Source: Balanoglossus misakiensis
Taxonomy: Eukaryota > Animalia > Hemichordata
Direction of reading: 5' to 3'
Assembly: GCA_040954595.2 (NCBI GenBank)
Contig: CM082589.2
Location: 524,988-588,987 of the forward strand
Length of the DNA stretch: 64,000 nt
Made by a program: the position numbers and the translations under genes. This document shows positions 32,601 to 57,076 of the stretch, piece by piece; position 1 is the stretch's first letter, and each line of letters begins with the position of its first letter. Under the pieces are notes generated by a model. That model was given only the letters and a program-made list of their open reading frames with translations. It did no database searches and was not told the origin of the DNA.

Positions 32601-35600
32601 CTTACCTTTCCAAACCTTGAAATACATTGATGGGGTCTAATATTGCTCCCATTGCTTCCTGGATGTTACTGCCGTCTAGGAGGAATTCTGGCAAGGATGG
32701 TAACACTGGTCTACTGAAATTTGCCAAGGCTTCCAACAGAACCATGTATTCCTGAATGTTGGCAGCGTATTCCTGCCAGCTGAAATCCACTATGCCGGAA
32801 TCTTCATTAGACTCCATGAACTGAGAAGGGAATATGGATATTTCATTATGATCACAAGTATTGGAAATACCATATGTGGTCTATCACTTTGTCACTGACA
32901 GTTGTGACCACTCCTTATATATTTGTGAGTAAGACGAAATTTCATCAATACCATCAAACATGAAGCAATGCATGAAATCGCTTTGGTATTCACATTTCAA
33001 ATCCCATGTCATTACCTCTCTCATTACATCTGCTATCTCATCATTGTTTAGTAAATCCTGCAGAAGAAAGTCACCATCCATTGGAAAACACAAGATCTTT
33101 GAAACACTTGTCAGATTCACTGTTGCAGGGAAAGTGAATGCTTGACTCAGCGCCTGTGGATCGCAGAGTGTGTTGTTCAGTTGTCCTCTCATAACCAATA
33201 ACACTAACTGTAAAATGACGAAGACAGAATGAAAGCTATGATTATCATGAAGTGCATATAATAGCCAACAGTAGATATCTCTTGCAATGCCGAGTCGCCT
33301 CATAAAAAGTGAAAAAGTGAAAACTCATAAAGACTTATATTACTTGGTAAGCAACCCATTGCTATGGCAATGAACCAAGTCTTGCAAGATCTCACAGTTT
33401 ATCTTACCTTCTGTGGAGTTGTCATCATAGTGAGTGTTGCTTGAATGACATCAGGAAGAAATGTAACAGATGTTTTGATGTAATCTGCAAAGAATGTAGT
33501 ATTCTTGAACATCCTGTCTAAGGTCAACCCTTCATCTGTAAAAAAATTCAATATATCAATTTAGAATAATTTACACCAAAGTACTAATGATAAGGATGTT
33601 ACACACGACAGATTTACATCATGGGAAAATATTTATCACACATTTTAAGGAGGACATACATGAACTGTACTTACCTAGAACTTGTCTAAGTTTAGTGTTT
33701 ATAAACTCCATGACAGCGTTGTTTGTTTGGAAGGATTTCAAGACACTGTTCCATTCTTCATTGTCAATCAACATGTTATCAATACTGTCCAGCATAAAAG
33801 CCATTGTATCAATATAGCTGTAATGTAGAATGATATGTTCATGTCAGTTATAGACAACAACGCCATACTAATCATTAGTTAATTGGTTGCTTGTCTTTGT
33901 ATACTTGCTTCTTGATTGGTTGATTGTTTCATGCATGATTGATTGATTGATTCAATGTATTACTTACTTATTGCTTATTGGCATATTTAACCTTGCAATC
34001 ATCTCTTGCAGATTAACATTCCAAATGGTGCCATTCATTAAAGATTGCGGCAGTGAGAGGAAGACAGGAAGATCTTGCAAATTCTGCAGTTCCATTGTTT
34101 TCGCTGCATATTCTTCAAGGGTCTTGATATAATCCAGCCACGAGAATGCACCAGGATTACTCAACTCTTCCATCTACATGGAAGAAAGAAGTAAAGTTAC
34201 ATACAGTTGTAAAAACTTTAACAAAGCATCCTCATGTGTGGACACAGCAATAACACACTTCTATTCAAAAGTTCAAAGAACCTAATTACTTACATGTAAA
34301 GGTTACTAAGGACTTAAAGAAAACTTTATTAACTTACACTTGCAAGTAATTGGGCAAAATCCCGGTTTCTCAATAGGTCATGCATGAAAGCATCTGTGTT
34401 GAAATTGCAGAGCAGACGTTGGATTTCTGTGATGTTAGCACTAAAACCAAACTCTTCTCTCAGATCATCAGCATCACAGAGTGTCTCATTCCAATCCCCT
34501 GTTATCAACTCTGACAGCTGTAATAAAATCAAGAATTAGTTCAATATGTGAATCTCGTGATGTCAATACCAATAGTGCCATTTTAAAGGTCTAAACTTCC
34601 ATTTTTGCTTCTTTTTATAAAATTTAAATGATGAAGCCCCCCCCCCCCCAATGATTTATTGTCATTCCCTCGATAAAGTGTTTATCATACCTTTTCTGGT
34701 TGTGTGACAACAGTGAAGAATAAATCAACTAAGTCTGGAAGAGCTTCTGCTGTCTTCTGCATCAACTCGATGTACAGGGTGGCGTTCTCGAAGAGACCAT
34801 CCAATGATAAACCATTCTCTACAATAAGTTGAAAAACATGATCAGGTGAATGTTTAAATGAATGAATTGTTATTACTTTTAGTGCAACATGAGTAAAACA
34901 TTCAGACCAAAAGAAAAACACGTGACAAATGGAAAAATCCATACAGATTTAAAGGTAAGTAATGATAAATGCCATACTTACCCATGATATCATCTAGTTT
35001 AGCATTTACAAATTTGTAAATAATATTGTTCATTTGCATGTTGCTTTTCAAACTGTTCCACATCGTGTTGTTCTGCCACATGATGTCCAGAACATTCAGG
35101 AGAGTATTAAGTTGTTCAAACCATCTACAGAAGTGAATAAATGGGAAAATGGTTTTAATAATAACAATTATATTTACGAATGAGAGTGTCTTGAAAGATG
35201 TTTCAAGGGGTCACGTCTTGTGTGTGTCAAATCTTATCATCTGAAATGTTGTTAAATGAAGAAATAAAATGTTGATTATCAATAACTTACGCCGTTGTTG
35301 TGGGCATCTGCAGTCTGGCTAGAATCTGTGGAAGTACCGTGTTCAACAAGGTTTCGTTCAATTCTAGTAACGATGGAAAGATTGGTAAGTTGATACTCTG
35401 TAACTCCTCCAATCTTGTTGCATACTCCTGGATGGTTCGGATGAAATCCAACCAATCGATTTCAACTTCCCCAGATGCATTTCCTAACAGTTGATTAATC
35501 TTAGAAGTAACAAAATAACATCATTGTTTTAGTTGCAATAGTCATGTGCTTTTCCTTTCAATCTCTGAGTTCATAACAAAAGCTTTATGCAAACTCTTCT

Positions 35601-38600
35601 ACAACCTCTGATGGTTCAATGTTGATATTATGATCAATATCACAGTCCAAGTTCCTGCGAAATCACTGAAAACTTAAAAGTAAAACATGTAGATTCCACT
35701 CACTCAAGCGATCAATCAATTGATCAAACAATTATCCTCATTGTGCCAAAAGTTCTTACCTGATCTAAGAGTTCAGCAACATCCCCAATCTGCATGAGGT
35801 CATTCATATAATCGTTGTTGACAGACTCACATAGCAGACTCAGTAATGCTGTTACGTTAGCAGAGGCCGGGAAATTGAAGGTTTCCTTCAATTGATCCGG
35901 ATCACACAGGGTTTCATTCCCATTTACTGACATTGCAATAATCTCCATGAGCTAAAAGAAAAAGGATTCTTTCATTACTAATTGTTTGTTTGTATAACAG
36001 AAGCTTCAGAACTTCAGTTTACTCCTTAAAACACACTATATCCAGGAAACCTGGCCTATTCAGATTGCGTCAAACTTTTATCTCGATAAAATACCATCAT
36101 TTCATATCATTTACCTTTTGTGGCTGGGTTATGAGAGCCAGTGAGGCTTCCATCATGTCAGGCAGGGAATCGGCTAATTGCTGGAACAGTTCAATGTACA
36201 TAGTCCCATTCTCGTACAACGAATCCAGAGTCAAACCATTTTCTGTGAATACAATTGAGAATAATATAAGCCTAGTTTGTGTGATCCCACCAAAAGCTCG
36301 TCATTTACACTATCAATTCTGGAGAAAGCCAGTAAAACACTTGTTGGGCGACCTACCAGTGATTTCTTCTAGCCTTCCATTTATATATTTCAAAATGTAA
36401 TAATTCATGTGAATGTTGTTCTTGATTTCATTCCAAGGTTCAGTGTCTGGCAACATGCTGGCAACTATTCCAATGTTTTCAGCGAGAAGCTGGAACAAAC
36501 TGGTGAAAGTAATAAAAGGTAGAATACATTACAGGCTGAAGACATGATGATGCTTGAGGCAGGATCATTTAAAACATTTATGTTTCTCTGATAAAACACA
36601 CGAGATATAAACAATGGTGAACACATACTCATCATTACTGCCAGGCATTTGTAGACGACTCAACATCCGAGCCATCAAAATATTCCAAGACGTTCCATTG
36701 ATAGTAATTTCTTGCAATGATGGAAACAGTGGGGCATTGTAGTTTTGCAACACGTCCAACAGCAGTGCGTAATCTTCCATTGTTCTGAAGAAGTCCATCC
36801 AGTCTATTTCAATGGGTGCTGATGAGTTGCCAAGGAGATGAGTGATCTTTTCAAGGGAAAAATACAAAGCATATGGATGTTACCATAGATCTCATGTTGA
36901 GTGATCTGGCATTTGAATAATTTGGTACCAAATGAGAAGTTCCTGGTTTCTTTTCCATGAATGTATTCTACTTAATATTACCTGACCAATAAGTTCCGCC
37001 ATATCTTGGTTCTGGAGAAGTTCAGCCATGATCTCTTCATAGGATGTTTTGCAGAGAATTCTCTGTATAGACATTATGTCTGCATCTTCTGTTAAATTGA
37101 AAACTTCCTTCAGTATTTTCGGATCGCAGAGAGTAGTGTTCCAATCTTCAGACAAGGCCAATTGAATGATCTAAAAAGAATGACAAATGATTTATTTGTT
37201 CAGCAGACATAGACAATATGGGAAATATTCCATGATACAAACAGATGATTTTAAAACTGTTACCTTTTCTGGTTGAGTGCCCATTGCTAGCGATGCTTCA
37301 ATCAAATCAGGTAAGAATTCAGCAGATTTTTGGATCAATTCGATGTACTCAGTTGCATTCAGGTAAAACGAATCCAGTTTCAACCCGGTGTCTACAGAGA
37401 TAAGCAAAATATAATATAATCACACAAGCGTTGAATGCATTTCAGCTATTACCTTGCTTTAATTCTGAAGTCATGCTTTGAAATCTTTCAGAATTACTCT
37501 AATTAATGATGAGCTCAGAAAACCATCTGACAATTTACTATCTTTCTGAAAATATTATGAAAATCGTCCACAACAACAAAAGACAAAAACTATTCCACTT
37601 ACCCATAGCTTCATCCAGTCTACCACTGATGTATTTGATAATGAAGTAATACATTCCAGCTTGGCTTTTCACTTCATTCCATGCGTCGTCGTTTCCAAAC
37701 ATGGTGTCCAAAATTGCAAGGTTACGACCAACAAGATCCAACCAACTAAACAAAGGTAAAAAGACAATACAGTCATGATACAGGCAAATTTTTCAAATTT
37801 AAGATTTCACACAAACTGGTGAACAGCAAAGAAGTAACTCTCAAAAAGCTTCTATTATTAAACAGTACCATTCAGAAAAGCACTCTTTTTAGCAAACCAT
37901 GTATTTTTAAACTCACATGTTAGTATCAGGCATGTCCAACATTACAAGTACTTCTTTGATCTTATCTTCCCAGAAAGTTCCATTCGTGATGAACGGAGGA
38001 AGTGATTGGAAGAGTGACAAAGAATTGTTTTGCATCATTCCAAGTCGTACAGCAGTTTCCTCTATTGTTCTGAAGTAACTGGTCCAGTCGACGTCGATTG
38101 GACTAGAATCGTTCCCGACCATGTATCCAATCTGTCAGACAAATTGAAATGTAGCTGTTATTCTTGTTCTCCGTCATTGCAAGCTATTTGATTATATTTA
38201 CCATATCTATAATTAAACTTCATTTCAATTTTGGGATGAGACAAGAATTTGCAAGTACCTGATTCAAGATATCAGACAAGTCTTCATCACTTGCCAACTG
38301 CTTAATAATATCTTCAACATTTGCGTTGCATAATAAATTCTGAAGCATCATGATTTCAGCAGTTTCAGGGAAGTCAAACATTTCCTTCAAGATGTCTGGA
38401 TGGCAGAGTGTTTCATTGATGGCGGCAGACGATATAAACTGCATTACCTGGAAGAATATTGCAAAATAATCATTACAGTATTACCATGTAGTTATCTCAT
38501 CAGTTACATTTCTGATTAAAAAATCAACAGCTCAACAACTTTTTAAAGAAAAATGGAAGTGAAATTTAAGACAAGGTGTTTCACAAACATAAAAAGGCAA

Positions 38601-41600
38601 AATAGTTAAAATACCTTTTCTGGTTGTGTCAATATTACCATTGATGCGTCAATAAGGTTCGGTAGCTGATTGGTTGATTCCAGCAACATTTCCGCATACA
38701 TGGTGGTATTCTTGTACAATGAATCAAGTGTCATGCCATTCTCTGCCAAACAAAAACAAGAGATGTTTAGATTAAGTGAAGATATTCAACGTCTCTTAGA
38801 ATATATGTTATATTTATTGTTAGTCACACTGCAAGAACACATGTCTGCATTAGCTTGATTCATTCTAAAACTCACCTATAATATATTCCAGTCTATTGTT
38901 GACGTATTTGTAGACATGATTGTAAAGACTGATAATCTGCTTAATATCATTCCATGCTGTGTTGTTTCTCCATGCGTTTTCAACCATCGCCATATTGTCA
39001 GCAAGCACGTCCAACCAACTGACAAAAAAAAAGTGTGTTTAGGAAGTGATAATTAAAATGAGTCTATAGGAAGCTCACATATTTCTTGACAACAGTTGAC
39101 CATTTTAACCACCATACTGTCAAACTGAAACATTTATATTATTCAAAACGAGTCCATAAAACACAAAGAGAAACTTCTCAGTGGAATTAAACCCTAAAAT
39201 TGTTAATTCTTCATGTCAATAATTTACTTTAAAAAGCAAATCAGAATAATACTTACTCATTTGTTTCAGACATTTGTAGATTTCTCAGTATCTGAGAGAT
39301 TTTAATATCCCAAAATGTTTCATTAACAGAAAATGTCTGTAGGGAAGGGTACAGTGGCCCATTGAAATCTTCTAACTGCCCAAGCTTCGTTGCATATTCC
39401 TCTAATGTGCTGAAGAAATCAAACCAGTCGATTTCAACTGGTTTAGAGGTATTTGTCTGACTTCCAAGCTGAAAGACGAAATGGAATCATTAAGTAAGTC
39501 CATCTGAAAGAAACATGTTCTAAACAGCAGTTTCATATGAGATTCCCAAATGTCTGTTATGACCAGACAAAATTACCGGTAAATATTTTGAAAGAAATCA
39601 GAAGTAACTATCAGACATGTTATAATTGCCATCAAGAGTTGTCGCTATTCTTCTATTACATATATCTTACCTGGTTAAGTAGTTCTGTTATGTCTCTGCT
39701 CATCAAGACATCATCCATAAGATCTTCTGGACTGGTACTGCATAGTATTCTTTGGATTGATGTTATGTGGGATGTGTTGGGAAGACCAAAAATGTCCCGT
39801 ATCTTTTCCGGATCACACAGCGTTTCATTCCAGTCACTAGACGTTACAAGGTCAATTATCTAGGATAATGAAACAAAATCATAATGTATACAGGTTTATT
39901 GCTCGCTCGCTCGCTCACTCCACTCCCACCCTCCAATCCCCTCCCACATTGTCAATCATTCAGTCAGTTAGGTATGTATATGTAGGTAGATAAGTAAATG
40001 AACGAACAGTGTTTAGATTACCTTTTCCGGTTGTGAAATGAGTGTCAAAAACGCATCAATCAGATCCGGAAGCTGCTCTGCCGATTGCTGGATCACTTCC
40101 ATGTACAAAGTCAAATTCCCGAAAGTTGGTTCCAATGTCAATCCATTTTCTAAAGAAGAAGTGGGCGTGGTAAGTGAACAATTTCTGTCTTGTTGATCTT
40201 CAGTGTAATGTATTAATCATGAATAAAGGTGATAAAAATTGGCGTTAGACACACTTCTTGTTTCTTACTCACCTATGATGTCATCAAGCCTATCATTTGC
40301 ATATTGGTAGAAATGAAGATACGTTTTCAGATTTCCTTTGATTTCATTCCATATTGAATTGTTTCCCATCAAGCTGTCAATCAGTTCACTGTTTTGCGCC
40401 AAAAGATCATTCCAGCTGAAAACAGAAAAAGGGGGAAAAAAAAACACTGACAAGTTACACATGCTGTAGCTCACTCAAGCATCATTTTAAAACAATGTTC
40501 TTCTCTATCTTTTCCCATCATGTGACAGAGTAAATGCCAAGACACAAATAACTGTCAATAAACGGAATGGAAGAACGAGTACTAACCTGTTTGTTTCCGG
40601 CATCACCAATCTACCCAACATTTCCTGGATCTTTGCTTCCCATACAGTTGCATTCATGAGCGACTGTGACAAAGTTGGGAATATTGGAGCAGTTAAACTC
40701 TGCAATCTCTCAAGATTGGCGGAATATTCTTCCACTGTTCTGAAGAAATCCAACCAGTCCACTTCAACTGACTGTGAAGCATTCATCAAGTGGAAAATCT
40801 AGAAGGAATAAAAAGGGTACACATTTTTACACAAGTATCACAAAACTGTACCATAGTTAGCAACATATCTACATTTAATTGATTAATTAAAAACCCCACA
40901 AAGTGTCAGGAAATCTTTTATATTCATAAACTATATTTTCTAGACTGAACATCGAATATCGTATTAGATATCCTTACCTGAGCTACAAGTTCTGCAATAT
41001 TTCTGTTCTTCAACAGATCAGACATGAAGTCATCTTGGCTACTATTGCACAAAATTTGTTGTATGGAGATGACATGTGTTGTATCAGGGAGATCAAATGC
41101 ATCCTGTAGGTGTTCTGCATCACAGAGAATTTCATTCCAATCCGAGGCCATAAGAATGCTGATCATCTACAAGAAATATAATTTAAACAACATGATACAA
41201 AGTGCTGACATATATTTTGAAATGCTGAGAAATACAAGCTCTGAATTGGGGATATGTGATATTTAGACAATTGAAACGAAGTTGTACCTTCTCTGGTTGT
41301 GTAATAAAAGTCATTGACGCATCGATCAGATTAGGTAGAAGCTCGGCAGACGTATGGATCAGTTCCAGGATCATTGTCGCATTGTCAATCAATTCCAACG
41401 TCAATCCATTTTCTGAAATAAAATGATGGAAATCTCAGTTAAGAGAGATACATGTAACATTGTTGTTGAGATTAGTATGGTACTTGTGCCTGACAGGTAT
41501 GACAGTTCGAAAATAAGAAAGTTATAAATTATGTTATGTACCTATTTCAAGATTGTAATAAATATATATGTACCTATTGTATCTTCCATTCTCGCATTGA

Positions 41601-44074
41601 CATACTTGTATATGTGATGATACATATTGATCGTGGTCTTCACAGAATTCCATGCAGCATTATCGTCCAACATGTTTTCAACCAAATCAGTACTTCTCAT
41701 CAACATATTCATCCACCTGTAATAAATTGTAAAATTAATCCTCAGTGCCAACAAGTTTCGGCCGTTTGCATGTTACATTGATCAGATCAGTAGTACATGG
41801 GAAAGATAGGTCCCATTAAAAACAATGATGTAAATGGAAAAAATAGTATGTGTGACATTAAAATGAATATTACTCACTCTGCTGTGTCTGATACATCCAA
41901 CTGTGCCAGTATACTTTTCAATTTCAAATCCCAAAATGTAGAATTTGTGATGAAATCAGGCAGTGATGGGTAGATTGGTCCATCAAAGTCTTGTAATCTT
42001 TCCAAGTTCATTACATACTCTTCAAATGTACGGAAGAAGTCCAGCCAATCGATTTCCACGGATTCAGAGGCGTTCTTGTACAAGTCTTCCAACTGAAGGA
42101 AAGAAAAGAGAAAAGAAATGTTCAGCGATAACACAAGAATCCACCAACCTACTAAGGGCATTTATACTCTATGAGTTGTATAGAAGAACGATCATTCAAG
42201 GCATTGCACCATTTCGTAAAATCTTACCTGGCCAACAAGTTCAGCCATATATCTGTTCTTCAACAGATCATTCATGAAATCATCCGCAGATGAAGTGCAA
42301 AGAATTCTTTGTATAGAACCAACATCAGATGTATCAGGCAGATTGAGTGCCTCCCTCAACTGGTCTTCATCACATAGTGTCTCATTCCAGTTCCCAGACT
42401 GTAGAATGCCAAGCATCTTGTGGAAAAGAATTAAAAGATATAAGATACTTATATCTAGAAGCAGGTTGCAACTGGTCCAATAATGTATTCACAAAAGGAC
42501 AAAACGTGGTTTAGCTGATGATGAACAAACTTTATATCAAGACAACTGTGATTCACAATGCTTTTCCGAAGATGATATTATCAAAACATGCACCATGCAT
42601 AAAATATTGAATTCATACCTCCTGTGGTTGCATCATGAATGACATTGAAGCATCGATCAAACCTGGAAGTAGTTCTATCGATTTGTGAATCAGTTCCGTA
42701 TACAAAGTTGCATTCTCATAAAACAAGTCCATCGTCAAACCATTTTCTGCCATGAAAAGAAAATATTCAGTTGAGTCAATAATCCTGGAGTATTCTTTTA
42801 TAACACAAATGCACTCACAGCACCCAAAGAAAAATGTCTGTTCATCATAAATGGTTACACAACAAATTATTTAACTTTAGCTTTACAATTTACATCAATC
42901 AACTCTCTCTCCTCTCTCTCTCTCCTATATATGCCATACTTACCCAAAACTTCAGCCATACGCCCATTGATGTATTTGTAGACGTAGTAATACATCTTCA
43001 GATTCAACTTGATTTCATTCCAAGCTGCATTATCACCCATAATGCTTTCTCCCATCACCATGTTTCCAGCGACAAGCTCCAGCCAACTAAAAGGAAGTTG
43101 GGTAGTGATTGAAATTAATAATCACGTGAGGTTTTAATACTGAAAAAGGGGGAGCTGAGTTCAGCAAGATAAAATACTTACTTCAATGAATCCTGCATGG
43201 GAAGGTTTCCGAGCACATTTTCCATCCTAGAATTCCAGAATGTACCGTTGAAAAGTTCCAATAATGGCAAAGATGGAAAGATGGGACCACTGAAGTTCCC
43301 AAACATCTGCAGCTTCATGTTGTTTTCAACCAAAGTTCTGAAGAAGTCTAACCAGTCAATGTCAACAGGTTCAGAGTCATTCCTGAAGAGTTGGTTGATC
43401 TGTAATGAAATGGAAATATTGATGTTATGAAGCAATTTTATCAAGTATGATATCCACTGAATCAGATTAACATACTGGTATTCATAGATCTCTTACCTGC
43501 TCGTAAAGTTCAGCAATATTTCTATTCTCGACGAGATCATTCATGAGACTTTCCATGGAGGAATTACAAAATATTCTTTGCACTGATTCAATTTCCGATG
43601 CGTCTTCCAAATCTAAGAATTCTTTCAACTGGTTGGAATCACACAGAATGTCATTCCAGTTTTCCGCCATTACAATTTCCATCATCTAGGGAAGATAACA
43701 TGTTAATGATTTAGTAGTGAGAAATTATGGATATGAAACGAGTGAAGAAAGATAACTTGTTCTCAGCACACATTGTACACACCTTCTGAGGATTTGATAT
43801 TATCGTAAACGATGCATCGATGAGATCAGGCAGAATCTCGGCTGATTTCTGGATGAGTTCAATATAGACGGTTGAATTTTCAAGCAGTGAATCCATCGTC
43901 AACCCATTTTCTGAAAGAAAATACACAAGAATATCAACTGATGCACTGGAAGGAGACTTTTTAGAATGATGATCACCACCAATGACATGCAGTTTCTTCA
44001 TCATAGGCGTATCTTATTTGGCTCAACATTTACAAAACGATTTGTGAAATTCAATGAATTTTATGAGATTACAA

Positions 44075-44107
<33 letters not shown>

Positions 44108-47100
44108 CATACATACATACATACATACATACATACATACATACATACATACATACATACATACATACATACATACATACATACATACATACATACATAC
44201 ATACATACATACATACGTACATACATACATGAAGGTATGTGTACTATATTGCATTTACTCACCCATAATTTCATCCATTTTTCTATTTGTGAATTTGTAC
44301 ACATACTGATTCATCTTAAGCTGACGTTTGATTTCATTCCATCCAATATTGTCGACTAAAATACCGTCAATCATGCCCATATTTTGTACAAGAAGTTCCA
44401 ACCACCTTTGCAAAAGGAAAAAGAAAAGGTCTCAGTATAAATGTTGTAAGGTGTAGATACCAGTGGATAAATAGAAATGACAGAAATTTCATTACAGTAT
44501 ATTTTCATATTAAAAACATCTTACATGTCGGAATCGGGTGCGTACTGCATTTGTGACTGCATTGTCACCATTTCCATCATTCTGAGGATTTGCGTCCAGT
44601 TATACAAGGTCTGCCAGGTCATCGTGATATTTGGAAGTAACATGATGTTGTCTGTGAATGACTGAGCATTGGCGATGAACAGGTCCCAATCAAATGGACT
44701 GACACTGAAGTTAAGATGGACACCATTTCCAAGTTCCTGGAGCTTGGACATCTAAGACAAAAGAATTGGAAATGTATTTAGATCAAAAGTGTCAAATAAA
44801 GTTCAACACAATCTTATTCTATGTAATGGTGATGTTTTATAGCATACAGCAACTTCAGTCGATAGGTCTGATAAGTTAAATTTTATTTCTTACCTCTTTT
44901 TCTAAAACATCAACTCTGTATTCGACTTTCAGTTCGTCTGCCAGTCTCAAGTAATTAACTTGACAAAGGTCATCCATGAAAGATACGTTTGTGGTCGGAG
45001 GAAACTCAAAGAAGTAACTTCTGATGTCATCATTACACAAGAGTTCGTCTGCCGTGTGTGCTGCCATGGCATTGGTCTTAAATAAAGAGTAACATTTTAT
45101 ATGTAACATGTACAGGTTCAAGCAATGTCCAATTAGAATACCTTGAACTTTCATAGTACATTGTCATTGTATATAAGGTCACTTCCATGAACTTGTCGAT
45201 TTATAGAAGTATGGATTAAGATTACTTTTCCTAATTGGTGTAATTCATCTCGTCAAATATGCAGATTATACAGGAAGGTTAAAACGTTCTCCTTACCTTC
45301 AATTGGTCATTCAAAGTTTCCAACGTGACCTGAAGGACATCTGGGAATTCCTTCATCAGACCTTGAATACCGTGAAGAAACAATTCAGTTTCATTACCCA
45401 TGACAACCATTGGGTCCTCTTCTGTTATAGCTGTAAATAAATCACACACAAAAATAGTAAGCACAACAAAGCACTATAATATGAGTTATCACTTTTTAAA
45501 ACTAAATGATAATCCACAATAATACTCACTCTGCCAGAGTTCGAAGTGCCTATTAACTGCTTCCATCAGTGAGTTAGCAAGATTAAACATTGGTCCGGCA
45601 ATTGTCCAAACTTCTGATTGCTCCATCATTTCGCCATACATACGAATTGTCATTGGAATCCTGTGGATTAAACATCATACAGTTTAAAGAAAGAACTTGT
45701 GATATTCTGACGTCTACCAAGTCTTGCTTTCATTGCACGAGCTACAGATACAAATAAAAATTAATTCATTATATATGCATACAACACTCACATTCCCAAT
45801 CCTGAATTAACCATCTCCATGTAACTCCCTCCTGCCTTTTCCACTGCTTCCAGAAGAATTCCTTCCATTCCAGATGCATCATGACCTTCAAACATTCCGG
45901 CTGTGCGGTTGAACATCGTCATAGTGTTCTCAGCCAGTTGTGACATGCTAATTAAGAATGCCTCCCAGTTGATTGGCTCACTGCTAACATTCACAGGTGT
46001 TCCCATCACAATATGCTGAATCTGAAAGATGAAGGATTAATTTTTTTGCGTGAATATACATCTATGTCAAAGTACTTGATAAAAGAATTGTCAAGCTGCA
46101 TACTACATGTAATAAACTGATCTTTTACAGAACAAATAGTCAGGAAAATCTCCAAAAATTGGTCCTTCTGTTTATAATTTTACAAGTTCACAATGAATAA
46201 ATATGTCTTACTTTAGTTATCAGGTCGTTCATAGGATATTGGTCGGTTCCTGCGACCAAATTGTCATAATTGACTTCGCAGAGGTAGTCGTCGAAGACCG
46301 ATTGGTTGAAATTTGGCGGAAAAGTCAGCCACTGTGAACGTCGCTCAGGATCACAAAATGCGACATGCCAATCCGTTATTTGGGAGATCATAGCAACCTT
46401 TGAGGAAAAAGAGAAGAGAAATAATGTAGATGAAACGATCAACTCAGCAAGTGCGGACCGGAAAATGAACATCAACTTATCACAACCTGTTTGTCGTAAA
46501 CAACATACTCTCTGAAATATCACTTACCTTCGACGGATCAGAAACTGTATTGATGAGGGTATCAACTACGACTGGTGCGTCCTGCAGCAACATATATACA
46601 CCATCATAAAACATCATCAAGTCTTGGTTTTCCAAGTCAATCTTACCATCGACGTAATCTGTAAGAAAATTAAATCAATATATTAATATCGATCAAATTG
46701 ATTAAATAAACGAGTATCTCTAACTACATAATAAAGATAAGTATTCTAACTGTGTATCATTAGCTGTGAGTCATACAACTAGGTCCAAGATACATGTAAC
46801 ATCGCTTACCAGAAAACATCTCAAGGTGATGGTTTAATGTGTTGACCATGTCATAGATCGTCTTGACAAAAGGTTCATAATGATTCCACATTTCAGTTTG
46901 TTCCAAGGTTGGCATCATAGACACCAAAATAGCAGGAAGGATCCTGTGAAAGAATACGTTGATGTAATGAAACAGTTTGAAATTAATTCAATGTATATAT
47001 CTAAACACACACATACATACATACATACATACATACATACATACATACATACATACATACATACATACATACATACATACATACATACATACACACACAT

Positions 47101-50100
47101 ACATACATACACATACATACATACATACATACATACAATGACAAAAACATCTTTAGTAGACTTGGACTCTTACATTTCTGGTATGTCAGCACTGGTCATT
47201 CCTCCTAAGTTCTGCATGATTTCCTGCGATATTTTATTCACAATGCTTGTCATATTCATGCCATTGATCATCATCATTGTCTCTTCGACTGCTTTTCCGA
47301 TATTTGCGTTCATTTTGTTAGAATCTTCCAAATATTGACTGTAGCTCCAGTCGACGGCTACTGCAGTTGTGTTTGATCCCATTCCGTCCACCTGGTGAAT
47401 CAGTTCACCGATGAACATTTCACGTTGCATTTCTTCAAAAAGTGTCTCCCAGTTGATTTGACACAAATTATCATCAATGATTGAGAAATCAAATGAAGAA
47501 TCAACAATTGGACGGACATCAGGATTACAAACAACTTCTGACCAATCATCGACTTGGGACAGCTGCTGTGCCTGAGATTAACAAAAGGGAAATAAAACAA
47601 CAAACACTCACAAATTATAGCGTTGTTCTTCTAAACAAACAGTCAATTTTCATTGGTGCACAGGTAATTGCTGAGACACATTTATATATGTGAAAATTAG
47701 GGGCCCAGGAAACAGTGTGGTAATTTAAAAGGCAATAAAGTTGTGTACCTGTTGTGGATCCATGAACATCATCAGAACCGTTTGAAGTAAACTTTGCATG
47801 TTGGTCTGGATGTAATATATACTGGTGTAAAACCTGATAAGTTCCGTTCCGTTTATTTCCATCCTGTTTTCTGCAAACCCTGAATGGGAATACATCATCA
47901 TCATCATTATCATCATCATCATCATCATCATCAAAAACGTTCAATTGTAATGAAGTAATCATATCACTACATACCTTCCATTATCTCAAAATGCTTATTA
48001 ACCATTTTAATGAAGAGATGTTGGGATTTGATTTGGTTTTCCATTTCTGGAAACAAACCCTGCATTCCGTCAAGCATCTGGCTCATCATCATCCCAGCGT
48101 TCTCGAAAACCCTGTGATGTAAAGAGAACATTATAGAATATTCTGCCTGTAATAATGGAGAACTGGGCTTCCTCTCAATCCATTACTTTAGAATAATGAC
48201 ACCACACTTTTTGCTACCACAGGAACTAAACGAGAAATCTACTTACTCTACTATTGGCATTTCCGGGGATACTTGAAACGGTGAAGCAGACATGTTCATA
48301 GAAGCCAACATTTCCATGACGGCAACTAAATCATAATATTCCACAAAAGTCATGGTAACGTTTCCCCACATATTCAAGTTCTCTGTCACAGTTTGTGCAG
48401 TCTTCATGTACGTTTCCCAGTCGAAAGGTTCGCCGCTTGCTGGGATGTCTATCCCATTCATCAGCTGTGCAAATTTCTCCATCTGTTTAAGGAAAAAACC
48501 CAGAAGTTTCTCAGCGCATGTGAAGAATATTATTAAAGCTCAATTCTATTCACACTGTAATCACACAGTAAGATAGATTTCGTTGTCTCAATTACTGAAA
48601 ATAAACACAGAATCTATTTGAAACTAACCTGTTCGTTCATTTGGGTCTGATAAAATTCTTCTGCAAATTCTTCAGAAAGAATAGTAATGTTGATGTTGCA
48701 TAGGTACAGGTCAAACACCGTCACATTTGCTGAAGGTGGGAAATCAAACAATTCCTGGCGTCGATCAACATCACAAAACATATCTTCCAAGGCTTCGAGG
48801 TCATCTATTGTCCCCATCTAAAATTTTGAGCACAAATTACATATACAAATGAAAAAATTAAGTTTTCATATTTGAAAATATTGTGAAAGAAATAATAAAA
48901 AGATACGACAAGAAAATTCAAATGGCACATACCACTTCTTGGTCCATGAGTACTGTCATTAGTGGTACCATCAAATCAGTTGGCTGTGACATAATTGCTA
49001 TTATCCCATTCAATAGTTTCGTCACTTCCGGTTGATCACTAAATACTTCTCCTCGGGATAATGCTACAGAAAGACGGATAATAATGGTTGTAAAGTACAA
49101 AGTAAAAAAGTCATACAAACAACAATGTAGGGCAACAGAGTGTCGCAACGGATATTTTTTTCCATTAATGCCAAAAGTGTACCCTCCATTAATAATTCAT
49201 TACCTTCTGCCATTTCAAATTGTTTGTTCATCGACATCATCATGTAATGGCTATACATCACCAATGGTTCCATCAGACGCCATTCTTCCATAGTTTCCAA
49301 AGTCTGACCAATAGCCAGCATCGTAGACGACAGACTACATAAAATAAAAATAAATACACAATGGGGATAAGATAATTTTCAAAGGATTTCATGAGAAATC
49401 ACACCAATGTGGAGAAGATTGTGTATGTTGATGAGAAAATGAAGAAATATCATGGTAAAAATAATGTGAAAGTAAAATGAAAAAAAAACATGAGGGTTAT
49501 TATTTTATAATCACAATCAAACATGGCCACCAGTGACCATAACAACGACACTGGTTGTCAGGGGAGGCTACGACCACAGGTGTAATGTTTCTCAGCTTCA
49601 AGAGAATATATTATTGTACTTACGACTCTTCTAAAGTCATTGGTGTTTGCATGCCAGTCAGTTGTTGTTGCATGACTTCAGTGATTCCTCCGATATCAAT
49701 ATCTTTGAATAAATTCATGAAAATGAAGTTCCAATCCATCGGATATGTAGACAGCTCTGTTAGTTGTTGCACCATCAGCATTGACTTTATGATGAGGGCA
49801 GTATAATTCGCATATACAAGGTGTTCTGGTGTCAAGTCGGTTGCACTTGTATCCAACACTTCTTGAAATATTGTGACCTGTAAATAAAGGCAGACGACAC
49901 CAAAATATTACATCCACATTCATGTACGATATGTATGTTAACAATGTGTTCGTTGTTAAAGTCTGTTGCCATGGTATCTACATTTCCCCTACTTGAAAAA
50001 AACAACTAAAAACACCTTAAACAAATCAGCCTTAAAACAGCGATTATCGAAAGTGGTTTGCTGAGATAAATATTGATAATACAATTCTTCAAATTTTATT

Positions 50101-52201
50101 TTATTTTATAAATCTTTATGTACCACTTGTTTTTTCCAGTTATTTTGTAGATACAATGTTTTTCTTTACCTTTTCCATTATTTCATGAGAATCCCATCTA
50201 AACATGAATTCTTCCATCATCTCCTCAATATCAAATTGACAAAGGGCATTCTTGACAACCGTTACGTTGACAGTGTCTGGGTACTGGATGAAATCGCCGC
50301 AGAAAATATTGCTTATGTTCAGACCATATATCGCAATTTCCTATCACAAAGAGAGTAAATATTACACGTATTAGTCACTGTACATCAATCAAAGATCATG
50401 GAAAGTAACTTCAATCTTGACCTCTGCAACTAAACTATGGATCTTTTCATACCTCAATGTTCGCTTGGTCAGAGAATGATTCCATAATGGCAGACATTAC
50501 ATCAGGACCGAGTTCCATGATCGTCGTTGCCATCTCAACGAAGGGGTCGTCCATCATGAAATTCATAATAGCAGGACCTATGACAAGGATAAAAGAAGTC
50601 ATTACATATTGCCAAAAGTTACTGATCTCAAGATTGAAATTTTAACTATATAATATTAAACATATAGAACAAAATAGATGAGAACTTCCCATAAGATTTT
50701 ATTTGTTATTTTCCATAACAACTGGCAATGATTGAGAGTTTGTTTCTGAATAGACATGACATATTCACCTTGCTGTGATTCACAAATGAAGCCCTCTGTG
50801 ACCAAACTGCAATTGTGTTTGTGCCATTCTCCATCAGATCCGAAATTTGCAACTGCGCAGTATTTTCTCTGTGTTTCGGACGCCCAGTTTTCGTATGTGA
50901 GACTTTCTCCATTTAGCCACTGCCATTGGTCACCATCCTGGCTTGACACTAGCTTCGCTCCTATCCATGTAGTGAAGCCAATACTGAAACATAGGGCAAA
51001 TTAAACACTTTATAACATTTCTATACCTTTACATGTAGTGTGGATACTTTTCTTGAGTCACCACTGAGTTTGTTGAGTCAGTGGCACATCATATGGGCTT
51101 GGGGGGGGGGGGGGGGGGGCACATTGTCACTTACATGAGAAATAGAATTTCACATACCAAGGTCCTGAGATCCTATTTTTCACACTCATCTGGCATATTT
51201 TGTCCCACACGAGTGTGACGAGCTGTGAGTGACAAAGAAATCCCCAATTCGTGTGAGAAATAGGTTCCTAGGTCCTTGGGAGTGTGAGATTCTATTAGTT
51301 TCAAAGTGAATGTAGAATAAAAAACTGTTACTTCCATACCTCATGCTCTCCAGTAATGCCTGTTCTTCTGCGGTCTCCACGGCAACCAGATGTGAGCCAA
51401 TCACAAGGCTGTCACAATGGGAGTTGGCGTCAACCATCGTCATTGTTTCCTCCACTGGCAAATAACATGATGTCTGTTCCTTCATCCAGTTTTCTGGACA
51501 ATATCTTTCGCCTATAACAGTGGAGAAAAGGGGATACATCTTAGCTTGGTATTTGCTATGAATGATCAACATCATTTAGAAAAATTGACTGATAATTTAC
51601 ATGGAAAACTTTATTGCCAATAAAGAATAGCATTTTCTTGCAGATAATGAGCTGTGCTCAATGGCCAATTTTGACATGAGTTACTATGCCTATCGCTTTA
51701 ATAGCTTTTGATTTTCTCCCTTGAAGATGGCGAGATCTTTTGGTAATAATTTTGTGGATAATCTTTACAGATAAGACACTTACCGGTAAGTTTTCCTGTA
51801 ACCAGCATGATGATATCAACAGCTAGGTTTTCCAAGATGGCCATCTTCTGGATTGTTGGCCACAACTGACTATTCTTCATGTTCTCCTCAAACAACCACA
51901 CGGTCAAACCTGTTCCTTTGTCCATCCACCAATCCAGGGTGGTGTTAGTGTTCCCTATTCCCTGTGCCAACTGATTCCATTTATCCAGGTTCAACCGCAG
52001 CAAACTATCCAGGAATTCCGGAATATCTTCCAGGACATGAGGCGGGATGGATTGGAGACTTTCAGATAATTCTTTCACTGAGTAGTACAAATCGACCCAG
52101 TCTACATCGAATAGGTTGTCCGACCTGTCATTGTACTTGTTCAACTGAAATAACAATAATGATGATTGTTAAGGATGTTGATGAATGGTGTTGATGAATG
52201 G

Positions 52202-52296
<95 letters not shown>

Positions 52297-52312
52297 GTGA
52301 CGGAGGTGGTGG

Positions 52313-52358
<46 letters not shown>

Positions 52359-52368
52359 AATGATGATC

Positions 52369-52412
<44 letters not shown>

Positions 52413-55400
52413 AATGATGATCATGATTATGATCATGATGATCATCATCATCATGAAGAAGCACAAAAAATGATCCACCGGCAGTGGCAGTAAGAGTAAG
52501 TAGCACTTGATTTTCAACCCATATACCACATTCAAACACCAACCTTCCTGTTCAATGATGTCTGCGGTTTCAATAGTATACAAAACTGATGATATATGCA
52601 ATATTCTAGGCAAACTGGGGTTAAATTTCGCAGTGCTATCCACGAAAAATGGGCTAACGTTCGAAGAGGAAGTCCCGAGGTCAAGAATGTGCCAGGTCGC
52701 GATTCGCAATTTGTAACGAAATTGTACCATGTCTCTTTCTGCTGAAAACGAAAGCACACGTCTCTTATAAAATCTCTTCCAACCGGGTTGTTTACGATCA
52801 TTTTATGGCTTAACATCCTGTTCCTGTAATTCAATTCCTTAAATTGCAGGAAGTAAAAAGCTACCGACCTCTTTAACTACTTGAGTCATATCCATCATTC
52901 TCCAGAGTTCGTCCAAAAGTTCTGTTGCGTTCATTGTGCACAGCGTCTCCTGAACGTATTCGACATCAGCGTCTTCGGGGAGATGAAATATTTCCTCCAG
53001 AGAGTTTGGATCGCATAAAGTGGCTGCTACTTGCTCTGAATCAGTCAGAAGGGCCCTCAGAATATCTGGTGAGATAGTGGCTTGCAGAAAAACCTCAGTA
53101 AGGCCGGGATCTTCAGCAAAAAACCGGTCGACAAACCTTGTGAAATCCGAACTGTTTCGGAACAGATCAGATAACAAGATTTGGCCATCTGGGGGAAAAG
53201 ACAGCAATGAATAAATTAATATTAGATCAGTCTATTTCCCAAGAGACCAATTGAAATATAGTTAACAAGATTTCCTAAAGATACATCATCTCACAGGGAG
53301 TTAGTTCGTCCAAATTATGTATGAAAAAGTTACTAGGAATCTCTGCGCTTACCGTCATCCCTGGAATCATCAATCTTCTCGTTGAAGAACTCCGACAGAA
53401 TCCCTATCTGGCGAATTCCCTTCCTGACATTGACCCACTCAGTGGCATTTCCAAAGACCTCGTCTAGTGTGTCAATCACATGTTTGAATCTGGGGAGAAA
53501 ATGTAAAACAATACAGAATCATCAGCAAATGACAATTTCCATCAGTTTTGCCCAGTTAACTCCACCAGTCAATACATCAAAACATTTCTCTTTTCTCAAT
53601 ATTCACTCCGCACTAAAATGATATAGTCTTTTACTCACATGGCACTTTCCAAATCCAAGAATTCGGTCGAGAAGACATCATAAAGTTCCTGTAACTTCGG
53701 AATGATGTCAATGAATTCGATCAACTTGGGGAAGTCCTCCAATAATTGGCCAATATCTTGGATGTCTCCAACGCCTTCCAACAAAATGGCCAGATCATTC
53801 ATCACTTTATCCCAGTTGTATTTTCCAAATAAATTCAGTAAATCTGAAAACTAAACGAAACACGAGGGCAGAGAATTGGTTATGAAGTGAAATGACGCTA
53901 AACAAAATATATGGAAGTCACATTAAAGTCACAATGGTGTAAAAGAACAAAAAAGTTTCAGGAAAGTCTCCGTGATTTCCTTGGTTGCCTTGTCGAATTT
54001 TGTAAGTTCCCAATCTTTCTGTTCGATCATTGCATCTCAGGGCATCGTGGGTGGACTAACCTCTGTCAAGAGAAACGCCACATCGAGTTGTTGCTGAAGT
54101 TCTTCCACCACTAACGGTATTTGTGAGTCGGTAATATTACACAACGATTTCACCACATTGGTGACGTTGGCGTCCTCTTGAAACTCCAAGTATCCCGTCA
54201 ATTCCGTCTCATTGCATGCGATGGTTTTGAAACTGAAGCCAGCCAGTAAATCAAATATCTGTTGAATGATAGAAAGGGCATGTTAGTCTTTTAATCAACA
54301 TTATATATTCGTGTTTTGTTATTAGACAATATTTAATATCACTGAAGTTGACTGCAAATTGTCATATCTGATAACTGTGAGCATTGATAAAGTCTGAAGG
54401 CGACACCGATGCCGGTTTTGAAAACGGCTCAATGCGTCCAAAAGTATCGCATGGCCAAGCTTTGAATATTAGTCAACGTCGGTAAGATTTTAATAGCATA
54501 AATGTTGACATAGCACTGTGCCGACTTCTACATTATAGTGGCCGAAAGTGGAGAATATTCGACCTAAGAGGGCGCACACCAACTTACCCTGTTGATATTT
54601 ATAGTAGCATTCAAAAAGACATCCAGAATCTCTTCTTCAATCCCCGCTTCATCCCTGAGGTAACTTTTCACATATTCTGGATCTTTTAAAATATCTCTCA
54701 CTTTGTATTCTTTTCCTGAAATCCAGAAGATCACCAGTTCAAAAGAAAGATGCATGGTTAGTAATAATAACAGTTTTACTGAAAATTGGCCGAACAGAAT
54801 TAGTTTCGAGACACTGCAGGTATGAACTCGATTGAAGTAAACAACTTGACAACAGGGGGCATGTGGTGACACGCCCTTAACCGACCTTGACGTTATTTTT
54901 AGCAATAAAATGCGTAACAGACGAGCGATCGAAGAGTTCAAAGAAATTTCTGATGTACATTCTAGATAAAAGAACATTTCCCTACCTGTGAGATTTTGGA
55001 TTCCTTGATTGATTGTCGATGTCAGCTCGTTGATTGGCTGAACATTGTAAGATAAATTTCTCAACTGTTGCAACAATGTATCGTTTACAAAGAGTGGTTG
55101 AAGCTCTTCTAGTATATTTGATATTCTGAAAAAAATACAGGAATTCGGCGACGTTAGAGTTCAAAGCATGTGTGTGTCGACATTACTCGGAAACTGCATT
55201 TAATACTCTGGGCAAATCTGGAAAAAGTTCAGACTCGAGTCTTTATTTATATCTCAGCCGCCAATGCGACCTGTATATTAGCATATTACTTACTGTGCAC
55301 CTGCATAAGCTGGAATTTGATTACTTGGCGTAGTCATGTTATTTTGGCACTGGTTCTGCATATCACACATAAATGATTGCATGAACGGCATAAGGCCACT

Positions 55401-56189
55401 GCTTGGCATTCCCTTCGCCGCATAATGACCTGAACGAGGAGAAAAAACATAAAGTTTGCTATGGTGGAATTGGATTGATGCTCTTTGGCACACTGAACGC
55501 TCGCATATTGGTTAGATCAGGTCACGTGGTAGGTGAATACTGTACATGTACTTACATTGCTCGTTGCTGACTGGTGGGTTCTCCTGCCTGATAACTGCAA
55601 CAACGATGAAAACAGCAAGTGGCCATATCAACTGAATACCTGTCAAAACCTTGTGAAGAAACAAAACAACAGTTTCAATATAAAAAGTAATATCTGAAGT
55701 CAGTTCGCAGCTAGAAAACCACAGGAATATTTGAAGACATGCCAGTAACAGGGGTCTGTCTGATTTATTATTTATGTTATTTATGTTCATACTTTCTGCA
55801 ACACGACAAAAACAGCTGTTCCGAAATTAATCAAGGCTATAACCTTAAGACGAGAAGATGTCTTAAGAAGACGTTTTAAAAGTTTAAAGAAAGCAGCTGC
55901 TGTATACAGTTAATGACATTAACACGTAGTATAATCTCGAGGTATTTATATGCAAGTTGAATCATTGTCTAGATCTTATAGTTGCACTGTTCTATTTCGA
56001 CCTACTTTTGAAGAATACACTGTCGACTCTCTCTCCTCTCCTCCCCTCTCCCTCTTCCCTCTCTCTAGTTGACAACAGGTAACGAAAACTCATTAACTAC
56101 TTAATTAAAATTAATCTACTTACAGGCGCTCGAAGTCGTAGCTTTAAATTTTTCCACAGCAACAAGGACAAATGCTGGAAGACACCCAT
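8569..56189 (-). CDS. ABCA12/13-like: Giant multi-exon ABCA-subfamily full transporter (ABCA12/ABCA13-like) with a massively expanded extracellular domain 1; span of a spliced CDS of roughly 130 exons
   Basis: N-terminus [22 protein letters not shown] then TM1 and [23 protein letters not shown]. Two NBDs ([25 protein letters not shown] and [28 protein letters not shown]). ECD2 motif [24 protein letters not shown], closest from memory to ABCA12 WYDPEGYH. C-terminal QTTLDQ-IFLSFA. Junctions I checked are GT-AG and in phase. Orthology needs a phylogeny. Confidence 0.95.
9614..9706 (-). CDS. Putative alternative ABCA terminal coding exon (proximal)
   Basis: TTTTCCAG acceptor, phase 0, [33 protein letters not shown]; the start resembles VFVNFAK. 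Confidence 0.6.
   Translation of the reverse strand, partial: VYVTMGKRPDTHSGVENEAFEDAAVQVDMD
10071..11858 (-). CDS. ABCA NBD2 and regulatory domain 2 exons
   Basis: [12 protein letters not shown]; [21 protein letters not shown] (~11327-11433); GYCPQEDAL; [12 protein letters not shown]; DEPTTGMDP; [20 protein letters not shown]; [12 protein letters not shown]. Confidence 0.96.
12036..15990 (-). CDS. ABCA regulatory domain 1, TM7, ECD2 and TMD2 exons
   Basis: [22 protein letters not shown]; [16 protein letters not shown]; CTCS..CPDGAAG; WYDNEGFH; NHPLHL; [10 protein letters not shown]; [10 protein letters not shown]. Confidence 0.92.
14427..14608. mobile_element. Non-autonomous DNA transposon (MITE), Kolobok-like
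   Basis: Perfect 16-bp TIR AGGTATACGGTCACCT (14431-14446 and 14589-14604) flanked on both sides by TTAA. Confidence 0.8.
16109..17627 (-). CDS. ABCA NBD1 exons
   Basis: Walker [11 protein letters not shown]-loop [10 protein letters not shown], signature [10 protein letters not shown], Walker [14 protein letters not shown]-loop THHMDEAD. Confidence 0.96.
17990..19460 (-). CDS. ABCA TMD1 (TM2-TM6) exons
   Basis: [24 protein letters not shown], hydrophobic helices, [45 protein letters not shown]. Confidence 0.92.
19656..21687 (-). CDS. ABCA ECD1 membrane-proximal conserved region
   Basis: [72 protein letters not shown]. Confidence 0.92.
21218..21301. mobile_element. Second copy of the same short dispersed repeat
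   Basis: TTAGGAAAGTCCCTCGACTGGCTGTTATAGACAGGTTTGATTGTA. Confidence 0.55.
28670..28751. mobile_element. Short dispersed repeat, pogo/Tc1-like MITE remnant
   Basis: TTAGGAAAGTCCCT..TATAGACAGGTTTGACTGTA is shared with 21218-21301; the terminus TACAGTCAAAC also occurs at 19963. Confidence 0.55.
32309..44406 (-). repeat. High-similarity core of the array: nine A-B-C-D exon cycles with a period of about 1.15-1.45 kb
   Basis: A-type exons at ~43783, 42619, 41288, 40023, 38615, 37264, 36115, 34691 and 33408, each followed by B, C and D exons of near-constant size (~128, ~189, ~215, ~143 nt). Confidence 0.92.
44078..44230. repeat. (TACA)n microsatellite, intronic
   Basis: About 38 TACA units. Confidence 0.97.
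47005..47136. repeat. (TACA)n/(CA)n microsatellite, intronic
   Basis: Visible directly in the sequence. Confidence 0.97.
47893..47932. repeat. (CAT)n microsatellite next to a splice acceptor
   Basis: Visible directly in the sequence. Confidence 0.9.
50769..51511 (-). CDS. C-type lectin-like domain (2 exons) embedded in the ABCA ectodomain
   Basis: Exon 51340-51511 [41 protein letters not shown]; exon 50769-50983 [38 protein letters not shown]. Both outer introns are phase 1. Confidence 0.9.
51141..51296. mobile_element. MITE-like foldback element in the C-type lectin intron
   Basis: About 45-bp imperfect inverted repeats AATAGAATTTCACATACCAAGG... and ...CCTTGGGAGTGTGAGATTCTATT. Confidence 0.6.
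52195..52454. repeat. (GAT)n microsatellite, intronic
   Basis: About 260 bp of imperfect GAT repeats. Confidence 0.97.
55294..55649 (-). CDS. ABCA coding exons 2-3: TM1 and start of ECD1
   Basis: Exon 55556-55649 (94 nt) [31 protein letters not shown]; exon 55294-55429 (C)[27 protein letters not shown], a typical ABCA ECD1 start. Confidence 0.92.
56124..56189 (-). CDS. ABCA first coding exon (start codon, LLLWKN motif)
   Basis: ATG at 56189; 66 nt encoding [22 protein letters not shown] followed by GTAAGT. Not in the ORF track. Confidence 0.93.
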
Positions 56190-56491
56190 GTCTGAAAAAT
56201 GACCGGCTTCACTCAGTCAATGATCAAACTTACACGTCTTCTCAAACCGTTTGCTGAAAAGTAAAAGAAAAACTCCGTCACAACTTTTCCATGCCTTCAT
56301 TCACTGACTGGAATTCCACAGTGTTCTTTACTTAGTGTCAAGACACTTTCTGTTGAAGTTTTCTCTCCCCTCTCTCTCTGTGAAACCGCCCTCTTGTGAT
56401 TCAGAATCTCGTGCTAAGAGTCCCATGAGCGAGGTCAGTCCTAAAGATCCAGATCAGCGAGACCCACAAAAGACGCATGCGTATACGCTGC

Positions 56492-57076
56492 GTGTTTTCT
56501 GGTCACCCAAGTATTCTCGCTCGCTCCCGCAATTATGCGAGTAGATTCCAGTGCAAGTTTAGTGACTCTGAGAATAAACATGACCAGTATCTTGGAATCC
56601 TTAGTCGTGTCCTTTATTCTATCGACCCACTTTCGTTTTTCACGGAGTTTTGATAAGACTCGAACTAGCGTATTCGAAACGTCGAGAAATGTATGATTTT
56701 AAATTCTCTTTTTGGTTAGGGTTTTTAAATGGAGTGGCGGGACTAAAATGTGTTCAAATAAGCTAGCAATTGTGGTAATAGTGTTTTCTGGTCACCCAAG
56801 TATTCTCGCTCGCTCCCGCAATTATGCGAGTAGATTCCAGTGCAAGTTTAGTGACTCTGAGAATAAACATGACCAGTATCTTGGAATCCTTAGTCGTGTC
56901 CTTTATTCTATCGACCCACTTTCGTTTTTCACGGAGTTTTGATAAGACTCGAACTAGCGTATTCGAAACGTCGAGAAATGTATGATTTTAAATTCTCTTT
57001 TTGGTTAGGGTTTTTAAACGGAGTGGCGGGACTAAAATGTGTTCAAATAAGCTAGCAATTGTGGTAATAGTGTTTT
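56492..57076. repeat. Tandem duplication, 2 x 289 bp, near-identical
   Basis: Copies start at 56492 and 56781; one mismatch seen (aaatggag vs aaacggag); GTGTTTT at all three junctions. Confidence 0.95.

Follow-up and report, generated by a model that had tools for sequence, protein, structure and literature searches.

The 64,000-nucleotide stretch of Balanoglossus misakiensis DNA analysed here (the window) carries on its minus strand a gene for a giant ABCA protein, and two neighbouring exons within that gene together spell a C-type lectin domain (CTLD). Is this CTLD really spliced into the transporter, how did it come to be there, and what might it do in the ectodomain of a putative lipid exporter? 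ABCA transporters, their large ECDs, CTLDs and exon shuffling of 1-1 modules are all known already. Which lipids an ABCA protein carries, and with which partners, is believed to be set by its ectodomains, and the oversized ECDs of ABCA12 and ABCA13 are not known to contain recognised domains. Searches of the open-access literature listed no description of an ABCA protein that includes a lectin or WAP domain, nor of repeat arrays like those reported below, and the passages of PMC13257379 used here do not mention a lectin.

In order to define the host gene, an ab initio splice-aware model was built that was seeded without the two lectin exons. The model yielded 133 predicted coding exons and a single open frame of 7,623 aa, and comparison with homologs extended exon 101 to position 21116, which adds 29 codons and brings the predicted protein to about 7,650 aa, exceeding human ABCA13 (5,058 aa). 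Its main parts are as follows.

9614..56189, minus strand: complete gene of the giant ABCA transporter (splice-aware ab initio prediction with a single open frame)
54986..56189, minus strand: exons 1-4, with the N-terminus, TM1 and the ECD1 base carrying Cys 54, 75 and 81 (splice-aware model)
21336..54715, minus strand: ECD1 repeat array of 24 modules, about 225 aa each (splice-aware model and module comparison)
9614..19941, minus strand: end of ECD1, TMD1, NBD1, ECD2, TMD2, NBD2 and regulatory domains (model and homology)

The complete ABCA order TM1-ECD1-TM2-6-NBD1-R1-TM7-ECD2-TM8-12-NBD2-R2 was found in one predicted chain, in whose C-terminal part the two Walker A motifs and the signature motifs can be recognised, and exon 3 matches residues 55-87 of human ABCA4. 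Pfam detects ABC_tran twice, ABC2_membrane_3 twice and R1_ABCA1 in the orthologs. The closest relative is Ptychodera flava XP_070556625.1, to which the model is 47% identical over 4,593 aligned columns; the N-termini are 79-80% identical, and no exon is identical. Judging from family membership, the protein would carry out ATP-dependent lipid transport. The longest intron of the model is intron 9 (724 nt), and long (CAT)n and (TATG)n microsatellites lie in introns 9, 31 and 22 (52170-52450, 44060-44310 and 46990-47170, respectively). At 56444-57060, directly upstream of the start exon, about 300 bp are duplicated in tandem almost exactly, and by-eye reading of the six-frame translation placed at 300-1700 on the minus strand exons of a different gene, which encode an EGF-like and a CUB-like domain.

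ECD1 contains the 24 modules, most of which are encoded by four exons with phases 1-0-0-2-1, and all of which contain an invariant Cys pair. When the Saccoglossus ortholog was aligned with human ABCA4, its residues 1-277 matched ABCA4 1-283 (E 1.5e-28) and the module Cys pair fell on ABCA4 Cys 205 and 230, indicating that the modules arose by multiplication of a segment present in a single copy in the ABCA4 ECD1. The solved human ABCA1, ABCA4 and ABCA7 share their domain order with the giant ABCA, and the best PDB match of a crinoid ortholog is ABCA1 (1,352 bits), but these human proteins have one copy of the segment in about 2,200 aa, whereas the acorn worm protein has 24 copies, the inserted CTLD and a furin-type motif. 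A profile made from the 24 Cys-pair exons matched no PDB sequence; among 1.84 billion representatives it found 128 proteins at E <= 0.001, most of them short fragments. Two longer matches, P0031, which has chitin-binding repeats, and P0043, were dropped as false. Among the relatives, of which 30 were named through their sequence clusters, module-bearing giant ABCA proteins are found in echinoderms, molluscs, annelids, a nemertean, a flatworm and arthropods, and the number of detected modules is 27 in the Ptychodera model and ranges from about 2 to 27 per protein across the relatives. Modules 9-17 are far more alike than the remaining ones, which suggests a later expansion, and modules 21-22 (27877-29870, minus strand) contain extra phase 2-2 exons, 29870-29712 and 28215-27877, outside the four-exon pattern.

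The furin-type motif follows the last module directly, as listed here.

21388..21399, minus strand: furin-type R-x-K/R-R motif, the sole one in ECD1 (motif scan)

By chance 0.13 such motifs would be expected in ECD1, and one was found. Apostichopus and Antedon have a furin-type motif in the same loop as the acorn worm protein, and in 8 of 10 protostome sequences inspected it lies in a different loop of ECD1. In Macrobrachium the motif occurs only far upstream, and the ECD1 scan found none in Chelonus or in dog ABCA13.

The lectin exons lie near the start of the array, and the features around them are as follows.

51784..53188, minus strand: module 2, exons 9-10, ending in a phase-1 donor at 51784 (sequence and model)
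51340..51511, minus strand: CTLD exon 11, phase 1 to 2, with the long-form N-terminal Cys pair, alpha1 and alpha2 (sequence and model)
50984..51339, minus strand: internal phase-2 CTLD intron, 356 nt (model)
50769..50983, minus strand: CTLD exon 12, phase 2 to 1, with WIG, a short long-loop, C-x-V-A-N-F and WHK (Pfam PF00059 and model)
49204..50577, minus strand: module 3, exons 13-16, starting with a phase-1 acceptor at 50577 (sequence and model)

Exon 10 (52144-51784) ends in phase 1 with a GT donor, and joining exons 11 and 12 gives a complete CTLD of 129 aa, which follows the second of the 24 modules and precedes the third. An earlier note, made from the sequence alone, had described a two-exon CTLD with all core Cys and the WIG and W-x-W-x-NG motifs, set at a phase-1 junction between the second and third Cys-pair modules, and the present analysis bears this out: the domain has six Cys, its version of the last motif is W-Q-W-L-N-G, and its ends coincide with the symmetric phase-1 introns at both borders. 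The downstream acceptor given in that note, 50576, was one base off, as exon 13 starts at 50577. We then scored the two exons with a coding model trained without them. The in-frame scores of exons 11 and 12 were +19.2 and +14.6, respectively, while the other frames reached at most +3.0, and none of 117 intron window-frames attained the per-base score of either exon. Based on these scores, the CTLD frame is not a product of chance. Compared with the other 131 exons, exons 11 and 12 outrank 90 and 33, respectively.

These two exons could also form an independent nested lectin gene or be an annotation artefact. In favour of this, intron 12 contains one AATAAA, and reading through the end of exon 12 adds 37 residues before a stop. 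On the upstream side, however, the open frame preceding exon 11 has just 22 aa and no signal-like stretch (best 9-residue hydropathy 1.4), and the introns flanking the cassette measure 272 and 191 nt. A different concern is that the cassette is a tolerated passenger that is mostly skipped or has no function. Exons 10-13 give 291 stop-free aa with the CTLD and 162 stop-free aa when both lectin exons are left out, while skipping one exon alone creates 4 or 6 stops, so that the claim of in-frame skippability holds for the double skip, as a matter of frame arithmetic. The splice sites of the cassette are also weaker than the median of true sites, with the acceptors at the 26th and 18th percentiles and the donors at the 38th and 32nd. 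Both of these readings are best judged against the relatives, to which we return after the domain itself has been identified.

With exon 12 alone, Pfam Lectin_C (PF00059) was detected at E 8.6e-8 and 33.3 bits against a gathering cut-off of 22.6. Exon 11 alone gave a weak match (E 0.056) and matched PDB CTLDs, mincle and others, at E about 1e-5. The Saccoglossus ortholog scored 42.4 bits for Lectin_C. In the four copies of the domain compared here, the Cys at 5, 16, 33, 100, 116 and 125 are invariant, as are W64 and G66 of WIG, and in total 32 positions are invariant, including all Cys and the C-x-V-A-N-F...G-x-W stretch. In order to examine the fold, we ran AlphaFold2 on the Ptychodera segment from module 2 through the CTLD to module 3 with an 11-row alignment. 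The model is of low confidence (mean pLDDT 56.8, pTM 0.37), so that domain packing is unreadable from it, and it shows a mixed alpha/beta domain between helical modules. Even at this low confidence the model matched the CTLD fold in Foldseek (E 1.3e-5), and, through this Ptychodera model, VIA comparison with solved CTLDs gave a Z of 10.6 and an rmsd of 3.8 (109 aligned). Among the fold matches listed, nearly all of them taken up by the CTLD, no ABCA ECD match for the modules appeared.

The best sequence matches of the domain are CTLDs of PLA2R and DEC-205, repeats of the mannose-receptor family, and the fold matches include CLEC5A and CLEC12A. Since identity to known CTLDs is 25-30% or less, no donor can be named. 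The absence of EPN/QPD and of WND, both read earlier from the acorn worm sequence, recurs in the other copies: EPN/QPD is missing from the long loop in all four copies, only 8 residues and no Pro separate the loop Trp from the third core Cys, and the WND position reads WHK, WHK, WEK and WYT. According to passages of PMC7618208, canonical sugar binding depends on EPN/QPD and WND at Ca site II, and proteins or other ligands are often bound by CTLDs that lack this site; on the strength of its motifs, canonical sugar binding by this CTLD is rejected. The CTLDs of PLA2R, DEC-205 and the group V CLRs LOX-1, NKG2D and CLEC5A, which have no Ca site 2, likewise do without EPN/QPD/WND. These proteins are receptors, however, while the acorn worm CTLD has been inserted within a loop of a transporter. 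E50 in alpha2 and E126 are invariant and would fit the ligand positions of a structural Ca at site 4. Passages of PMC7618208 place the fourth Ca site of CTLDs between alpha2, beta1 and beta5.

Loss of site 2 leaves room for a non-canonical, Ca-independent glycan or lipid site, comparable with those of dectin-1, CLEC-2 and LOX-1, which would tether the transporter to mucus, matrix or the surface of lipoproteins. Such sites are known in CTLDs without site 2 (passages of PMC7618208), and a patch of aromatic and polar residues, Y88, W91, N104, F105 and W111, is kept in all four copies. Several of the invariant aromatics are, however, ordinary core residues, and there is no motif test for sites of this kind. 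The domain is also strongly acidic, with 20 D+E against 6 K+R, and such a surface would speak against sulfated-glycan ligands. We consider this possibility quite unlikely.

The CTLD was found after module 2 in three further species. It occupies residues 598-724 of Ptychodera XP_070556625.1 (E 1e-59, 89/127 identical, 70%), 636-760 of Saccoglossus kowalevskii XP_002737786 (E 1e-30, 53/125, 42%) and 603-725 of the sea cucumber Apostichopus japonicus XP_071835863.1 (40/122-123, 33%; the match with E 2e-14 covers 606-723). All three are database gene models named only 'uncharacterized protein', and Lectin_C is already detectable in them. In Ptychodera and Saccoglossus the model breaks off ahead of the transporter core, and the Apostichopus model unites within a single chain of 5,326 aa the N-terminus, the CTLD, the last part of ECD1 and both NBDs. 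A search for homologs of exon 10 among proteins of 211-2,000 aa found none, and a search with the Ptychodera CTLD region recovered only the query itself. A second ABCA N-terminus in Saccoglossus, XP_006823222 (P0152 / P0118), is 27% identical to the one that bears the CTLD and too short to include the slot.

These relatives bear directly on whether the CTLD belongs to the transporter. Three independent database models splice it into an ABCA chain at the same residues, and this common slot, together with the presence of CTLD and NBDs in one Apostichopus chain, makes a nested gene or a dead pseudo-exon unlikely. We regard the nested gene or artefact as extremely improbable and are highly confident that the CTLD is genuinely spliced into the transporter; its position within an ABCA ectodomain, as first read from the acorn worm sequence, is thereby supported. 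The CTLD is included in all four gene models that bear it, and its exons would be spliced constitutively into the ABCA mRNA. For the tolerated passenger, the crinoid and protostome proteins described below speak in its favour, as they have no CTLD. Against it, the six Cys and the 32 invariant positions have been kept from hemichordates to sea cucumber, and the CTLD is no less conserved than the modules on either side of it (70% against 64 and 52 in Ptychodera, 42% against 40 and 40 in Saccoglossus, and 33% against 18 and 16 in Apostichopus). A passenger of this kind appears very unlikely to us.

We next consider how the CTLD arrived. Among Ambulacraria proteins that span the module 2/3 slot, four of five have the CTLD. 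The fifth, Anneissia XP_033110729.1 from a crinoid, has no CTLD and carries at the same junction an eight-Cys WAP domain (residues 532-571; Pfam E 3.8e-5, 24.3 bits against a cut-off of 20.8; one gene model). The WAP domain is another small disulfide-rich extracellular module. The Antedon model does not include the module 2/3 region, and no N-terminus was recovered from sea urchins, sea stars or brittle stars. In protostomes the CTLD was found in none of 10 proteins bearing an N-terminus (P0004, P0010, P0022, P0046, P0059, P0126, P0141, P0143, P0147 and P0153; P0142 was omitted as redundant with P0143), and the spacing between the Cys of modules 2 and 3 is 166-199 aa in three protostome proteins against 327-364 aa where the CTLD is present. 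Residues 160-600 of P0059 (Bulinus) contain a Cys-containing 37-residue tandem repeat, which could be a further insert or an artefact of the gene model. Three relatives have frames of 16-20 kb on sequences barely longer, as expected of assembled mRNA, and the CTLD is in none of them. Pfam gives no Lectin_C in dog ABCA13.

Since hemichordates share the insertion with an echinoderm, it is ancient, and a recent or species-specific insertion is rejected. Sequence comparison suggests that the CTLD was likely inserted by exon shuffling before the hemichordate/echinoderm split, a 1-1 cassette presumably being dropped into a phase-1 intron between modules. The reading of the cassette as a symmetric 1-1 shuffled unit gains support from the phase-1 borders and from its absence in protostome relatives. 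The simplest history would be one insertion in the Ambulacraria stem followed by a replacement or a second insertion in crinoids.

In order to place the protein among other ABCA members, we made a quick tree of the core with 14 rows, in which Macrobrachium was mis-cut and ABCA1/4/7/12 were absent. The acorn worm protein grouped with Apostichopus and Antedon at an SH-aLRT of 99, and dog ABCA13 joined this Ambulacraria clade at 98, on a long branch of odd composition and with no ABCA1/4/7/12 rows to compete for it. Vertebrate ABCA13 resembles the giant ABCA in its very large ECD1, ABCA12 is another member with an abnormally large ECD1, and the ABCA13 ECD is reportedly encoded in part by one 4.8-kb exon. 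Large ECDs of ABCA members are noted in passages of PMC13161189, and passages of PMC7948424 describe the ABCA13 ECD as having no known domains. A profile built from 148 modules detected no repeat array in dog ABCA13 and gave one weak module-like copy (8.9 bits, against 4.5 for the highest-scoring of 100 shuffles), a result in which decay could hide an array. Beyond this single copy, nothing supports the idea that the same repeats make up the long ABCA13 N-terminus.

This tentative grouping brings in another explanation for the CTLD, namely that it helps the huge ectodomain to fold, to be sorted or to assemble with itself in the secretory or endocytic pathway and does not capture a lipid acceptor. 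Passages of PMC7948424 report that ABCA13 acts in intracellular vesicles and that the long N-terminal region of the mouse protein is required for vesicle localisation; the grouping with dog ABCA13 and the strongly acidic composition of the CTLD point the same way. The tree behind that grouping, however, has no ABCA1/4/7/12 rows, many-module giants exist in protostomes with no insert at all, and the WAP replacement in the crinoid would be easier to reconcile with a slot that faces a ligand than with a structural role. Based on these considerations, a role in folding or sorting seems unlikely to us.

We slightly favour the view that the CTLD is a non-sugar docking handle, which would keep a matrix protein or a protein that accepts lipid close to the lipid exit. 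Because ECD1 leaves from TM1 and returns to TM2, and the CTLD follows module 2, the domain would lie near the membrane-proximal base of ECD1 and not at the far end of the array. The partner might be bound through the conserved beta3-beta4 face, formed by the C-x-V-A-N-F...G-x-W stretch that is invariant in all four copies, and a structural Ca at site 4 would perhaps steady this face. By analogy with ABCA1, ATP-driven export could move lipid into the repeat array, from which it would be handed over to the bound partner. ABCA1 keeps exported lipid in its ECDs prior to hand-over (PMC5906560), and changes in ECD1 have been proposed to set the partners of ABCA proteins (passages of PMC13161189). 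It is these two points, taken together with the loss of site 2 and the position at the base, that favour the docking handle. The CTLD would be an accessory, since most protostome giants work without any insert. Because ABCA13, the nearest vertebrate relative in the tree, is vesicular, the partner of the docking handle may be luminal and not a circulating acceptor.

These results add a recognisable binding domain built into an ABCA ectodomain, which hemichordates and an echinoderm have kept and in whose place a crinoid apparently has a WAP domain. It is conceivable, albeit doubtful, that the giant ABCA proteins of bilaterian invertebrates form a class with a tandem array of the lipid-holding ABCA1/4 segment, a module-2 slot that is swappable (CTLD or WAP) in Ambulacraria, and an ectodomain cut by a convertase. 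If this is true, the transporter would have a built-in lipid reservoir and an interchangeable address label that chooses the lipid recipient. An HDL-type acceptor is not known in these animals, and the 129-residue CTLD could serve as bait for the acceptor of the giant ABCA. The spread in the number of modules detected, from about 2 to 27 among these proteins, would likewise offer a natural deletion series for the function of the ECD1 segment.
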